This document shows, piece by piece, positions 8,271-45,240 of a DNA stretch of 47,667 bases. Under the pieces are notes generated by a model that was given only the letters and a program-made list of their open reading frames with translations, made no database searches and had not been told where the DNA came from. Position 1 is the stretch's first letter. Each line of letters begins with the position of its first letter. The stretch spans positions 1 through 47,667 of the forward strand of contig JBIIPZ010000025.1 in the NCBI GenBank assembly GCA_044342325.1, given 5' to 3'. The translations under genes and the position numbers were made by a program. Source of the DNA: Terrimicrobiaceae bacterium (GTDB taxonomy: Bacteria; Verrucomicrobiota; Verrucomicrobiia; Chthoniobacterales; Terrimicrobiaceae).

Positions 8271-9412
8271 GCAGCCAATGCAGGTTGAAGTTTTGCGACG
8301 CGGGCGATGGCTGTGGATGCGAGATCGACACCAGCCTCCGTGGTGCCACGCCCCATGGAAAACCTGACTGTGGCCAGAGCTGTTCGTGAATCAACGCCCA
8401 TAGCAATGAGAACATGGGAAGCCTGAATCGAGCCGACCATGCAGGCAGAACCACTGGAAACACAGACGCCCTCCAAATCGAGTCCCATCAAAAGCGATTC
8501 CCCATCCGCCCCCGGGAAACTGACATTCAGTGTATTGGCGAGTGATCGTGCAGGGTCACCGTTTCGAATCGCTTGCGGGCAGGTGGAATGAATTCCCTCC
8601 CAGAGCCTCTCACGGAGTGGTGCAAGGCGCTCCGCGTCCTCTGCAGCGCGGTTAATTGCGACTTCGGCGGCTGCGGCCATTCCCACGATGGCCGCGACAT
8701 TCTCCGTTCCCGGACGACGGGAGTTTTCATGCGAACCGCCATAAGAAGTGCGTGAGAGCGCAATGCCAGCGCGAAGATAAAGAGCTCCCACTCCTTTGGG
8801 ACCATAGAACTTGTGAGCTGCGATTGAAATAGCTGAAAGACCCGGTAACGAGGTGGTGACAGGGATTTTTCCGAATGTCTGAACGGCATCTGTGTGAAAA
8901 AAAACGCCACGCTCTGCGCAGACCGCTGCAATTTCTTCAAGCGACTGGATTACCCCAGTCTCGTTGTTCGCGTGCATGATGGAGACAACGCTGGTCTCCT
9001 TGCGAATCAGACGGGCCAAAAGCGCAGGATCAACGACTCCGGCGGAATCCACCGGAAGAATAGTGACCTCGAAACCTTCAAAATGCTGCAGGTGTTCGGC
9101 CGCATGGAGGACGGCATGGTGCTCCACAGCGGAAATGATGATATGTTTGCCGCGCACGGCATGGGCGCGGGCGATGCCGATCAGGCCTAGGTTGCAAGAC
9201 TCGGTGCCACCTCCAGTGAAAATAATCTCATGCGCCTTCGCCCCGAGCAAAGCCGCCATGCGGTCGCGAGCATCATCCACCGCCGCTCGCGCACGACGCC
9301 CCGCTGAGTGGATGGAAGAGGGATTCCCATACTCCCCGTCAAGAAAAGGCAACATGGCCTCTCTGGCCTCGCTGGCTAGGGGTGTGGTGGCGTTGTGATC
9401 TAGATAAACCAT
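8267..9412 (-). CDS. iscS: Cysteine desulfurase (IscS/NifS family)
   Basis: YLDHNATTP, GNPSS, HTDAVQ, AHKFYGPKG (PLP lysine), SSGSAC. Confidence 0.93.
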   Translation of the reverse strand: MVYLDHNATTPLASEAREAMLPFLDGEYGNPSSIHSAGRRARAAVDDARDRMAALLGAKAHEIIFTGGGTESCNLGLIGIARAHAVRGKHIIISAVEHHAVLHAAEHLQHFEGFEVTILPVDSAGVVDPALLARLIRKETSVVSIMHANNETGVIQSLEEIAAVCAERGVFFHTDAVQTFGKIPVTTSLPGLSAISIAAHKFYGPKGVGALYLRAGIALSRTSYGGSHENSRRPGTENVAAIVGMAAAAEVAINRAAEDAERLAPLRERLWEGIHSTCPQAIRNGDPARSLANTLNVSFPGADGESLLMGLDLEGVCVSSGSACMVGSIQASHVLIAMGVDSRTALATVRFSMGRGTTEAGVDLASTAIARVAKLQPALAA

Positions 9413-40667: not shown

Positions 40668-41855
40668 TCAGGCAGTAAATAGTTCCGCACCGTGATGGTT
40701 CGTGGTCGGGACTGACATCGGCTCGGGATACTCAAAGATTTTCCCCTCGTAGTTGCGGATCACGATTTTTTCCGAATCGTGGTAGGCGACATAGTTGGGA
40801 TTGATCGGCACCTTGCCGCCACCGCCTGGCGCGTCGATGACATATTGGGGAATGGCATAGCCACTGGTAAAACCGCGCAGGGATTCGATGATTTCGATGC
40901 CTTTTGCGACCGATGTGCGCAAATGGGACGAACCGCGAATGAGGTCGCACTGGTAGAGATAATACGGTCGGACGCGGCAAAGGAGCAGTTTGTGGATGAG
41001 ATCCTTCATCAGATCGGGGCTATCATTGACGCCTTTGAGCAAGACACTCTGGTTCCCGAGCGGAATCCCGCTATCCGAAAGGCGACCCAGAGCATCACGG
41101 ACTTCACTGGTAAGTTCACGCGGGTGGTTCACATGCACACTCATCCACAGCGGATGATACTTGCGCAGCATGGCGCAGAGCTCCGGCGTGATGCGTTGGG
41201 GAAGAAAAATAGGAACCCGGGTTCCGATTCGCAGGAACTCGAGATGCGGGATGGAACGCAAGCGTTGAAGAATCGCCTCCAGGCGAGAGTCCGAAAGCAA
41301 AAGGGCATCGCCGCCGGATAGCAGAACATCCCGGATCGCGGTATTTTTTTCCAGATAGCGAAAGGCCTCCTCAAAATCGGTGACCAACTCCTGTTCTCCC
41401 ACCCCGCTTACAACGCGACTGCGGGTGCAGTAGCGGCAATAAGAAGCGCAGCGATCGGTAACGAGGAATAAAACGCGATCAGGGTAGCGATGAACGAGGC
41501 CTGGAACAGGCATGTGCGAGTCCTCACCGCAGGGATCTGCCATGTCATAGGGCGAATCGTAGCCCTCCTCGATGCGAGGAATCACCTGCCGGCGAATGGG
41601 GCAGTCGGGATTATCCCGCTCGATGAGATTGAAATAATGCGGCGTAATGGCCATCGCCAACTTGGTTCCTGCAAGAAGAACACCCGCTCGCTCCTCGCTA
41701 TTGAGCTGAAGATGCTCCTCCAAAGCAGCCAATGTGGTGACACGATGCCTCTGCTGCCAGCGCCAGTCACCCCACTCGGAGGATTGAGCATTTTTCCAAT
41801 AACCGGGGGCATGAGAAATGAATCGCGGAGCAGGCGCGGTGGACGGTTCGGACAT
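40668..41855 (-). CDS. kamA: KamA-family radical SAM lysine 2,3-aminomutase
   Basis: HRYPDR, CASYCRYCTR, LSGGD, NQSVLLKGVND, DAPGGGGK; start ATG 41855. Confidence 0.88.
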   Translation of the reverse strand: MSEPSTAPAPRFISHAPGYWKNAQSSEWGDWRWQQRHRVTTLAALEEHLQLNSEERAGVLLAGTKLAMAITPHYFNLIERDNPDCPIRRQVIPRIEEGYDSPYDMADPCGEDSHMPVPGLVHRYPDRVLFLVTDRCASYCRYCTRSRVVSGVGEQELVTDFEEAFRYLEKNTAIRDVLLSGGDALLLSDSRLEAILQRLRSIPHLEFLRIGTRVPIFLPQRITPELCAMLRKYHPLWMSVHVNHPRELTSEVRDALGRLSDSGIPLGNQSVLLKGVNDSPDLMKDLIHKLLLCRVRPYYLYQCDLIRGSSHLRTSVAKGIEIIESLRGFTSGYAIPQYVIDAPGGGGKVPINPNYVAYHDSEKIVIRNYEGKIFEYPEPMSVPTTNHHGAELFTA

Positions 41856-41913
41856 TTGAATTTTTAAGAGGCTACGACGATCACTGGGAGTGTCAACGCG
41901 GACGTTCAAGGGT

Positions 41914-41988
41914 GGATTCGGAAACCTTGCCAGCTTCAAACGCCAGCTCTGAAAATCCACTGGCATGACCCCTCGCGATTACAGAAAA
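41914..41988 (+). pseudogene. Remnant of an AraC-family regulator (C-terminal HTH)
   Basis: Translates as GFGNLASFKRQL*KSTGMTPRDYRK, matching the AraC signature GFxxxxxFxRxFKKxxGxTPxxYR, with an in-frame TGA at 41950-41952 and no upstream gene body. Confidence 0.7.
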
Positions 41989-42071
41989 CCCGGCAATCCA
42001 CCCAGTGATCTGTGCAAACTTGAGCAGTCGGCACTCCAATCATTCGACTCGGACTTTTCTTGAGTTTTGAA

Positions 42072-42100
42072 GTGTCATGCCAAGCATCAATTGATATTCT
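42072..42100 (+). promoter_or_regulatory. Putative extended -10 promoter giving a leaderless thrS-fragment transcript
   Basis: GTGTCA-N17-TATTCT with TG at -15/-14; 6 nt separate the -10 box from the ATG, as at cysE (TAGTAT-N6-ATG) and the GT2 gene (CATACT-N6-ATG). Confidence 0.5.
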
Positions 42101-42106
42101 CGCGGG

Positions 42107-43207
42107 ATGTCATCAGCTATCATGTCCCAAAAAATGGACACTATTCGCCAAGCCATCGAGGAAGGCTCGGCAAGCCCTGAGATCGTGGAGGCATTTAGGG
42201 AATGGAAATCCCTGAGCGGCCGCCTGCAGGAACTCGGCGAAACCGAGAAATACTATCTCAAGGCGATGAATTGCCCCCACCACCATCGAATTTTCGCGGC
42301 AGAGCCCCGCAGCTACCGCGACCTGCCGCTGCGACTGGCTGAATACGGATGCTGCTACCGCTATGAGCAAAGCGGAGAGCTTTTCGGGCTGATGCGCGTG
42401 CGTTCGCTGAACATGAACGACGCTCATATTTACTGCACGGAGGAGCAGTTCGCAGAAGAGTTTCGCGCCGTGAACGAGATGTATATCGAGTATTTCAAGG
42501 TTTTCGGATTGGAGAAATACCAGATGAGATTCTCCACACATGACCCCGAAAAGCTGGGGCAGAAATTTGTGAATGAGCCGGAGCTTTGGAAGAAGACCGA
42601 GGACATGGTGAGAAATGTTCTCGTCGAGAGCGGCATCAATTTTGTGGAAGTGCCGAATGAAGCTGCTTTCTATGGGCCGAAAATCGATGTCCAAGTCTGG
42701 AGCGCGATCGGGCGCGAGTTCACCATCGCAACGAACCAAGTTGATTTTGCCGTTCCCGCCAAATTCGGCCTGCACTACCGCGACCGCGACAACACTGAAA
42801 AGACGCCTCTGTGCATCCACCGCGCTCCACTCGGCACGCACGAACGGTTCATCGGATTTCTCATCGAGCACTACGCCGGGAACTTCCCACTCTGGCTTGC
42901 TCCCGAGCAGGTTCGTGTCATCACACTCAATGACGACCCAGTTTTGATTTCTTACGCTGAGCCCATTGTTAATGAACTCCGCCGTCATATGGTCCGCGCC
43001 GAAGCGGATTTCGGCTCCGAGCCCGTAAAGGCGAAGATCGCCGATGCCGAGAAAGCCCGTGTGCATACAATGCTGGTCATCGGCCACCGCGACATGGAGT
43101 CAGGTAATGTGAGCGTGCGCCTGCACGGAAAAGGCAATATCGGCGCCAAGCCGGTTGCCGAGGTCACAGCCGATATCCTTGCCTCAATCCGCGAACGCCG
43201 AGCCTGA
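42107..43207 (+). CDS. thrS: Threonine-tRNA ligase, C-terminal half only (part of the catalytic core plus anticodon-binding domain)
   Basis: YYLKAMNCPHH, SYRDLPLR, YRYEQSG, GLMRVR, AAFYGPKID, IHRAPLGTHERFIG, FPLWLAPEQV; an in-frame TGA at 42092 blocks any N-terminal extension. Confidence 0.9.
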   Translation: MSSAIMSQKMDTIRQAIEEGSASPEIVEAFREWKSLSGRLQELGETEKYYLKAMNCPHHHRIFAAEPRSYRDLPLRLAEYGCCYRYEQSGELFGLMRVRSLNMNDAHIYCTEEQFAEEFRAVNEMYIEYFKVFGLEKYQMRFSTHDPEKLGQKFVNEPELWKKTEDMVRNVLVESGINFVEVPNEAAFYGPKIDVQVWSAIGREFTIATNQVDFAVPAKFGLHYRDRDNTEKTPLCIHRAPLGTHERFIGFLIEHYAGNFPLWLAPEQVRVITLNDDPVLISYAEPIVNELRRHMVRAEADFGSEPVKAKIADAEKARVHTMLVIGHRDMESGNVSVRLHGKGNIGAKPVAEVTADILASIRERRA

Positions 43208-43255
43208 TTGGCGCGGTCTTTTCGCTTGTCACTCAATCCACCTATTTCAAAGTAA

Positions 43256-45240
<1,985 letters not shown>

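Follow-up and report, generated by a model that had tools for sequence, protein, structure and literature searches.

The window analysed here is the whole 47,667-nt stretch JBIIPZ010000025.1 (positions 1 to 47,667, forward strand) of the Terrimicrobiaceae bacterium assembly GCA_044342325.1. It carries a gene, thrS-C, for the C-terminal part of threonyl-tRNA synthetase (ThrRS), and the complementary N-terminal part is encoded by a separate gene, thrS-N, on another contig of the same genome. Sequence comparison makes it very likely that the two products together constitute the only ThrRS of the cell, i.e., a two-subunit enzyme, probably assembled as (alpha-beta)2. A previous reading of this DNA, made from the letters alone (the sequence-only reading), proposed that the gene had been naturally split inside a loop of the catalytic core; the proposal gains support from the N-half, from the lack of a full-length copy, from the relatives and from the length of the loop in fused genes. 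The parts of thrS-C in the window are:

42107..43207, + strand: thrS-C, C-terminal subunit of the split ThrRS, 366 aa (open reading frame (ORF), Pfam and TIGR00418; coordinates include the stop codon)
42107..42250, + strand: N-terminal head, residues 1-48, proposed docking element and C-side remnant of a lineage-specific loop
42251..42874, + strand: catalytic-core part, with YYLKAMNCPHHH, motif 2, motif 3 and the zinc-ligand codons
42272-42274, 42425-42427 and 42818-42820, + strand: zinc-ligand codons of C56, H107 and H238, respectively
42908..43165, + strand: anticodon-binding domain, residues 268-353, Pfam HGTP_anticodon

The start codon of thrS-C is the ATG at 42107, and an in-frame TGA at 42092-42094, five codons upstream, closes the frame against extension, as the sequence-only reading had stated. 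Pfam assigns tRNA-synt_2b to residues 46-256 (E 2.2e-40) and HGTP_anticodon to residues 268-353 (E 8e-12), and no other domain. The NCBIfam model thrS (TIGR00418) matches from model position 254 to 561 of 565 with 349 bits, which is below its cut-off of 383.65. Against solved ThrRS structures (E 1e-79, in the 79-bit-per-100-aa class), residues 43-364 align with residues 321-635 of the Escherichia coli enzyme (1qf6), and residues 42-343 with residues 322-621 of the Staphylococcus aureus enzyme (1nyq). The product lacks the TGS domain, the editing domain, the DHRKxG segment, class II motif 1 and the SGH loop, and retains YYLKAMNCPHHH, motifs 2 and 3 (residues 84-107 and 243-255, assigned by reading the sequence) and the anticodon domain; the first residues shared with ThrRS lie just before the MNCP strand. 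C56, H107, H238 and R247 are invariant across 12 C-halves, and the first three occupy the offsets of C334, H385 and H511 in the 1qf6 match, the zinc ligands of the E. coli enzyme. With motifs 2 and 3, an HGTP-type anticodon domain and the Cys/His/His zinc positions, the C-half carries the marks of the ThrRS class. The sequence-only reading had listed the same missing parts (with the segment given as DHRKLG) and had taken the zinc-ligand region, motifs 2 and 3 and the anticodon domain to be intact, and Pfam, TIGR00418, the structure alignments and the invariant residues agree with it on both counts. Since the same ORF recurs, at 92-98% identity, in five further genomes of the genus, it is unlikely to be a chance ORF.

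Two checks named in the sequence-only reading, i.e., for a free N-half gene elsewhere in the genome and for a full-length thrS, give a clear result: the former is present and the latter is not found. The window genome (G000) comprises 78 contigs and 2.93 Mb and is 86% complete. A profile search with TIGR00418 reports three places in it, namely the window ORF, a gene on contig C54 and a weak match identified as seryl-tRNA synthetase, and when both halves are searched by tblastn against all 78 contigs, each turns up once, with no other match. The gene on C54, thrS-N (G000:C54:9445-10332, = L002 1480-2367), has its own ATG and stop and encodes 295 aa; its 303-codon open frame covers TIGR00418 positions 1-256 with 231.6 bits, likewise below the cut-off. 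The two scores sum to about 580 bits, and fused relatives score 576-681 bits. The only Pfam domain of thrS-N is tRNA_SAD; the protein begins 8 residues before the editing-domain HxxxH, lacks the TGS domain, and spans DHRKIG, motif 1 and SGHLPYYAESMFPPMEMDE, followed by 23 more residues (HREERAKILSRMAELERILTPEG). It terminates with ...MFPPMEMDEHREERAKILSRMAELERILTPEG-stop, 40 residues past SGHLPYY, the last 26 aa (codons 270-295) forming what is here called the tail. On C54 it lies between what we take, from their sequences, to be genes for a ThiF/MoeB-type protein (upstream) and PriA (downstream).

The halves meet at one point of the solved enzyme, because thrS-N, which aligns with residues 70-327 of S. 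aureus ThrRS and 68-326 of 1qf6, ends at S. aureus residue 327 and thrS-C begins at about residue 322. The cut thus falls inside the catalytic domain, after motif 1 and before the MNCP zinc strand. H9, H13, C127, H131, DHRKIG (188-193) and the motif 1 proline P243 are invariant in 15 N-halves; the editing HxxxH/CxxxH residues and motif 1 of ThrRS are present on thrS-N and not on thrS-C. Since the N-half holds the editing domain together with the motif 1-bearing part of the catalytic domain, an active enzyme would have to be composite, and since neither half can hold a complete active site, the two polypeptides are expected to associate after translation.

The distribution of the halves was followed in all 41 species genomes of the genus, G000 included, with E<=1e-40 as the threshold for a further ThrRS match. 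Both halves and no further match are found in 13 genomes, among them G001, G007, G013, G015, G041, G045, G048 and G049, which are 94-98% complete. Four others have one half only (the N-half in G004 and G014, the C-half in G023 and G044); these are drafts, 64-94% complete, and G023 also has an N-half fragment at a contig end. A full-length thrS scoring above the cut-off is present in 20 genomes, fused-type fragments cut by contig ends occur in two (G052 and G054), and no ThrRS match was obtained in the remaining two (G005, 61% complete, and G042, 83% complete). Six other genomes of the genus were compared for each half; in them the cut falls at the same residue, and both tail and head show conservation. 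Conservation of the breakpoint in related genomes, another check that had been proposed, is therefore seen in the 13 genomes with both halves, in the four with one half, and in a second group of Verrucomicrobiota described below. The two genes are unlinked in the genus; in G048 a distance of 36 kb separates them on a single contig.

Editing proteins can be free-standing and synthetases can have truncated paralogues, and the two products might be independent proteins: thrS-N a trans-editing factor similar to AlaX or ThrRS-ed, thrS-C a paralogue with another role, and threonylation the task of something unrecognised. The complete editing domain of the N-half, with its invariant HxxxH and CxxxH, would agree with this. 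We nevertheless consider it improbable. No other ThrRS of bacterial or archaeal type is detected in the split genomes by a model that detects the enzyme in 14 of 14 controls, which include archaea. Furthermore, motif 1 and the SGH loop, about 110 catalytic residues that would be superfluous for editing, are retained in the N-half at 90-99% identity, the zinc ligands and motifs 2 and 3 of the C-half are unchanged, and the halves co-occur in 13 genomes, those with a single half being incomplete drafts.

Both thrS halves are under purifying selection. By the Nei-Gojobori method, applied to all pairs of eight N-halves and six C-halves, the ratio of non-synonymous to synonymous differences per site (pN/pS) is 0.041 for the N core (pS 0.42) and 0.024 for the C core (pS 0.49); it is 0.13 for the N tail (codons 270-295) and 0.26 for the C head (codons 1-48). 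The low ratios, together with the invariant editing, motif 1 and zinc positions, argue for working genes and not remnants. A truncated duplicate or decaying remnant, with the full-length thrS hidden in the unassembled 14% of the genome, could be imagined on account of the 86% completeness of G000 and of the fused thrS in 20 of the 41 genomes, and is very improbable: none of the 13 split genomes of the genus has a third ThrRS match, including those that are 94-98% complete, six genomes with collinear halves (see below) likewise lack a full-length gene, core pN/pS is 0.02-0.04 at a pS of 0.42-0.49, and starts, stops and break position are maintained between groups that share only 77-85% identity in their cores.

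The second split group differs in that the halves are collinear. In five genomes (L127-L131 = G057-G061) they lie on one contig and on the same strand, N upstream of C, and in a sixth (L047 = G310, Terrimicrobiaceae) they are 3.9 kb apart; the distance in the five ranges from 3.7 to 8.4 kb, and no full-length thrS was found in the six. The DNA between the halves differs from genome to genome. Its cargo includes an Old-family nuclease (PADLOC Old, 168 bits) with a DUF2130 protein, a metallo-beta-lactamase-fold protein with a GHKL ATPase, and three proteins without a family match. The cargo of G058 comprises a nucleotidyltransferase (MNT)/HEPN pair, a PemK/MazF toxin, an IS200-like Y1 transposase with repeat arrays, and an NHL-repeat protein. 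In this genome (L131:1459-5087) the last 179 nt of thrS-N are present in four direct copies of 100, 92, 63 and 78% identity, and a fragment of the thrS-C head lies within the cargo region (L131 3462-3552 / 9116-9204); among 29 split loci scanned, such copies of the thrS-N 3' end occur in G058 only. They look like the result of repeated displacement of the gene end by incoming DNA.

Split forms are also frequent beyond these genomes. N-half-length proteins were drawn from a collection of 5.8 billion proteins, and among the best 120 of them 90 end with the split-type tail (52 versions, on contigs of up to 444 kb). A phylum sample of 250 genomes, in which the second split group was not drawn, gave no further N-half-sized frame at high identity among the 150 matches listed; two short frames in this sample (G281 and G230) are 47-48% identical.

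The break coincides with a loop that is variable in fused genes. The 80 best loci of public species genomes by the N-half are all from Verrucomicrobiota, the closest (95-98% identity) mostly from Terrimicrobiaceae; 17 of them stop after the tail (split), 56 continue into the C-part (fused), and seven fall outside the motif pattern, six of these being fused and one cut by a contig end according to tblastn. In the 56 fused relatives the distance from SGH to MNCP varies from 31 to 285 aa, the intervening sequences being unrelated and often charged, in line with the insertion-tolerant loop before MNCP that the sequence-only reading had pointed to; the conventional type in the genus ('LLKPMNCPMH') has 50 aa with a CxC. 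In a BLASTP comparison with the fused protein of L074, the N-half (1-294) falls on residues 1-304 and the C-half (23-366) on residues 302-650, so that the tail and the second part of the head (residues 23-48) correspond to one arm each of the L074 hairpin. Nothing in L074 matches head residues 1-22, and the head is absent from solved ThrRS, where the alignments begin at residue 42-43. It is homologous in all split forms, with A29, E32, L36, L40, L43 and G44 invariant in 12 sequences. Between the two split groups, identity is 50-58% in the tail, 29-38% in the head and 77-85% in the cores.

The head was also used as a query on its own. A word-indexed search gave four clusters, all of 361-376 aa. 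A profile search of 1.84 billion representatives gave 45 matches, nearly all fragments of 31-193 aa, and none of the 45 is a ThrRS of at least 590 aa matched at position ~270-330, although clustering at 50% identity can hide such fused forms. The fused thrS genes in L048, L096, L102 and L109 are extended within the same loop by some 180-230 aa, inserted in frame. The insert of L102 (gene L102:2989-5358) matches the IS200-like Y1 transposase family PF01797 with 25.6 bits (cut-off 23) and keeps the HxH; it represents a transposase-like domain within an essential synthetase.

Both products carry extensions at the break, and these might be taken as a sign that the halves are rejoined into one chain, by a split intein (protein trans-splicing) or by an event at the RNA level. 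This is extremely improbable: a Pfam search (E<=0.01) finds no intein or Hint family in either half, Rfam finds no family, group II introns included, in the 3.8-3.9 kb loci, the genes are unlinked in the genus, and the extensions of 26 and 48 aa are too short for intein halves of the usual sizes.

An assembly or binning artefact, i.e., a chimeric join upstream of 42107 or contigs from different organisms, might be suspected in a draft of 78 contigs with the halves on different contigs, and can be dismissed as having a negligible probability, given that contigs of two other studies cross the junction, that 12 other genomes of the genus have the same arrangement (one with both halves on one contig), that each ORF starts and stops cleanly between unrelated genes, and that the two contigs are alike in composition. 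The GC content is 0.559 for C20 and 0.554 for C54 (genome 0.565, sd 0.013), and their tetranucleotide distances are unremarkable (ranks 12 and 46 of 68). At least half of the sampled words of 41700-43400 are present in 14 DNA runs, from lake and freshwater metagenomes. One contig from these data (X3, 3538 nt) covers 41700-43324 with three differences and another (X4, 2040 nt) covers 41700-42591 with eight, and neither shows a joint across the upstream junction, where the sequence-only reading had pointed to misassembly as something to be excluded.

In the arrangement that we favor, thrS-N, at the ancestral thrS locus, would supply the editing domain, the linker, class II motif 1 and the SGH loop, and thrS-C would supply the zinc site, motifs 2 and 3 and the anticodon-binding domain. 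The break separates motif 1 from the zinc-binding MNCP strand and sits at the tip of a surface loop specific to the lineage, which fused relatives have as a long, hypervariable insertion. The heterodimer would form after translation and then pair in the manner of ThrRS to give (alpha-beta)2, and the 26-aa tail of thrS-N and the 48-aa head of thrS-C, as the arms of the former loop, may act as the docking element.

Several observations weigh against a two-subunit ThrRS of this kind. Physical association of the halves and charging of tRNA-Thr by the pair are predictions from sequence. Neither half alone reaches the curated equivalog score of 383.65 bits. Because G000 is 86% complete, the absence of a full-length thrS from it rests on the relatives; and because fused thrS is present in 20 of the 41 genomes of the same genus, the split has no evident benefit. 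As for the docking element, whose head the sequence-only reading had described as helical-looking, a helical-moment test with a crude script (z 0.03, 1.68 and 1.67) is uninformative and lends no support to amphipathic helices, and the head is the least constrained part of the system, in terms of both pN/pS (0.26) and identity between the split groups (29-38%). A hint of expression comes from RNA library X15, three contigs of which, each with 0-2 differences, fall within 42423-43032 and so concern the C-half alone; no RNA-library contig lies upstream of 42298, RNA libraries can hold DNA, and contigs do not reveal transcript start, strand or level.

The locus of thrS-N provides a clue to which piece has moved. 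In seven of eight N-half loci (L022-L029) a ThiF/MoeB-like gene precedes thrS-N, the contig of the eighth (L025) ending before that side, and in five of those loci a PriA-like gene follows, two of the five with a 340-aa ORF inserted between. Since the fused thrS genes of the genus also stand directly after a ThiF/MoeB-like gene, thrS-N has stayed at the ancestral site and thrS-C is the part that has relocated. The 340-aa ORF between thrS-N and the PriA-like gene (L023:3448-4470 in G007, also in L024, L035 and L037) is putatively RhuM-family-like.

Three kinds of thrS occupy this one locus within the genus: a conventional type with 'KPMNCPMH', a short-loop type with 'KAMNCPHHH', and the split type (compared in L014, L015, L062 and L092-L094, in L040-L046, and in L002, respectively). 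The conventional type is 76-82% identical to the N-half and 51-52% identical to the C-half, and the neighbouring gene in L062 is 98% identical to that of the window genome. The comparison suggests that thrS, or its C-part, has been replaced at this locus within the genus.

Whether the gene was split once or several times was addressed with a tree of N-core plus C-core, the loop being left out, with 50 rows: all 11 split pairs to hand and 39 fused genes, the latter chosen from the clade seen in a quick tree. The split rows do not form one clade (approximately unbiased (AU) test, p = 3.6e-8), and at least six state changes are required; the AU test is weakened by the fact that the split group was named after the quick tree had been seen. 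Another tree, built on the N-core by a quick method with 93 rows (25 split, 61 fused, seven cut and unlabelled), requires at least ten changes. Despite this lack of monophyly, the split forms all share a homologous tail and head and the position of the break.

Comparison of genomes in the collinear group gives 92-100% identity for the DNA flanking the loop on either side, 69-80% for the editing-domain DNA and 62-88% for the anticodon-domain DNA (L130 compared with L074, L131, L128 and L127), and the mosaic also holds between split L130 and fused L074. Such a pattern suggests that the central part of thrS was exchanged recently in this group. The genus of the window genome is without such a mosaic, with 76-93% identity throughout. 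At the protein level the catalytic core is too conserved for a mosaic test to discriminate. Our tentative reading is that there was one old split allele, that the collinear group still swaps it with fused alleles by recombination in the core, and that in the genus of the window genome the allele has become fixed and is vertically inherited, with the halves unlinked. Several independent fissions, or re-fusions by deletion, are plausible alternatives. A wider proposal can be put forward only tentatively, and we think it somewhat doubtful: that the surface loop of thrS is, in some Verrucomicrobiota, a store for foreign genes, that the gene was opened at the tip of its helical insertion and the halves came to flank a variable defence/toxin-antitoxin island, that split versions with cargo and fused hairpin versions are exchanged by recombination in the near-identical core DNA to either side, that the genus of the window genome represents the end state, its halves unlinked and fixed as a two-subunit enzyme, and that tail plus head form a portable heterodimerisation module by which an essential class II synthetase tolerates a cut between motifs 1 and 2.

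Split aminoacyl-tRNA synthetases are rare and are used as evidence for a modular build-up of these enzymes, and to our knowledge the known ones are cut between domains or belong to class I. In Crenarchaeota, ThrRS is encoded by two genes, ThrRS-cat and ThrRS-ed. That pair separates a complete catalytic and anticodon-binding protein from an editing protein, whereas here the editing chain bears about 110 catalytic residues, including motif 1; with motif 1 and the SGH loop on the editing chain, the cut is not one between the editing domain and a complete catalytic domain. The leucyl-tRNA synthetase (LeuRS) of Aquifex aeolicus is reportedly an alpha/beta heterodimer. It resembles the thrS-N/thrS-C pair in being bacterial, normally one chain, encoded by two genes, cut in the catalytic body and dependent on both chains, and the present system has in the same manner two conserved genes with their own starts and stops, no fused copy, and a cut inside the catalytic domain. 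In contrast to the split ThrRS, which is a class II enzyme cut between motifs 1 and 2 at a loop tip, Aquifex LeuRS belongs to class I and is known from a single lineage; it also differs from the split ThrRS in that the latter occurs in fused and split form within one genus and has, in one group, halves that flank variable cargo.

Among class II enzymes, bacterial PylSn/PylSc resembles the split ThrRS as a synthetase of two gene products with fused forms in other lineages. The cuts in PylSn/PylSc and in glycyl-tRNA synthetase (GlyRS) fall between domains and leave the catalytic core whole. Unlike both, the split ThrRS is cut in the catalytic core itself. The genome of Nanoarchaeum equitans contains many split genes. 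Its alanyl-tRNA synthetase (AlaRS), according to PMC8887476, is a class II synthetase in two pieces encoded at unlinked loci. This is another enzyme in another domain of life, and the split ThrRS is likewise of class II and encoded at unlinked loci. The alpha2beta2 GlyRS (PMC10164559) is also a class II synthetase of two gene products with fused forms elsewhere. In the full-text literature searched, mostly open-access articles, no bacterial ThrRS is described that is encoded by two genes or interrupted inside its catalytic domain. The split ThrRS joins the known split aminoacyl-tRNA synthetases, and no description of this cut and form was found.

Here a class II core is cut between motifs 1 and 2 and is kept under purifying selection in many species, and the fused forms at 86-93% identity in the same genus offer a natural matched pair for the study of synthetase function in two pieces. 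Tail and head together are a candidate for a small natural docking module, which would be of interest for engineered split proteins, and the collinear relatives hint at a way in which inserted foreign DNA may open an essential gene and keep it in that state. A further consequence concerns annotation, as each half stays below the curated cut-off and the genes are named 'threonyl-tRNA synthetase', 'threonine--tRNA ligase, partial' or 'hypothetical protein'.

The surroundings of thrS-C in the window hold the following further features:

42060..42106, + strand: 47-nt conserved upstream block, candidate compact promoter (alignment of six upstream regions of the same genus; putative function)
42092..42100, + strand: TGATATTCT, -10-like box extended by TG, ending 6 nt short of the ATG and beginning with the three bases of the in-frame stop
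43196..43222, + strand: terminator-like hairpin and T-run, overlapping the thrS-C stop codon (one site against a shuffle mean of 1.5, weak)
40668..41966, - strand: lysine-2,3-aminomutase-like radical SAM gene (Pfam LAM_C and Radical_SAM), divergent upstream neighbour outside the split system
43268..44536, + strand: purA, adenylosuccinate synthetase (Pfam Adenylsucc_synt, E 1.8e-180), conserved downstream neighbour

Conservation upstream of thrS-C starts about 47 nt before the ATG in the six regions, two of which have upstream neighbours that differ; farther out, G000 and G015 are unrelated to the other four. The block consists of TGARTTTTGRAGTGYCAT, nine variable bases, TCRATKGWTATKCT, six variable bases and the ATG. 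The -10-like element TGATATTCT, already noted in the sequence-only reading as a TG-extended -10 box 6 nt before the ATG, is seen at 42092-42100 and is identical in five of the six genomes, G015 having GGTTATGCT. Thus, TATTCT stands at -12 to -7 in five genomes and TATGCT in G015, and the preceding TG is kept in five and is GG in G015. None of the six has a Shine-Dalgarno-like motif within the six variable bases between the box and the ATG, so that the spacing and leader features of a leaderless extended -10 promoter are present, at the level of sequence, in 6/6 genomes. The first ATG of thrS-C is the start codon common to both split groups, and later ATGs are not shared. A generic sigma-70 scan, which demands a -35 box, gave no report at 42092-42100, and Rfam found no leader RNA in the 3.8-3.9 kb loci around both genes, apart from one chance snoRNA match (E 0.054). 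Given the conserved 47-nt footprint, the -10-like box, the absence of a Shine-Dalgarno-like motif and the shared first ATG, it is plausible that thrS-C has a compact promoter to itself and a transcript with a very short leader or none. The hairpin at 43196-43222, which is within chance expectation, would make thrS-C a transcription unit of its own, apart from purA.

The upstream neighbour of thrS-C varies: the lysine-2,3-aminomutase-like gene adjoins it in G000 only, among seven genomes, and the corresponding gene in four relatives is presumably one for malate dehydrogenase. As this neighbour in the window is a LAM_C and Radical_SAM gene on the opposite strand, the earlier statement that no N-terminal ThrRS part lies upstream holds. 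The position directly upstream of purA had likewise been read correctly; purA begins 60 nt 3' of thrS-C, with its start at 43268, and the order thrS-C, purA, next gene is kept in five of the six other genomes checked.

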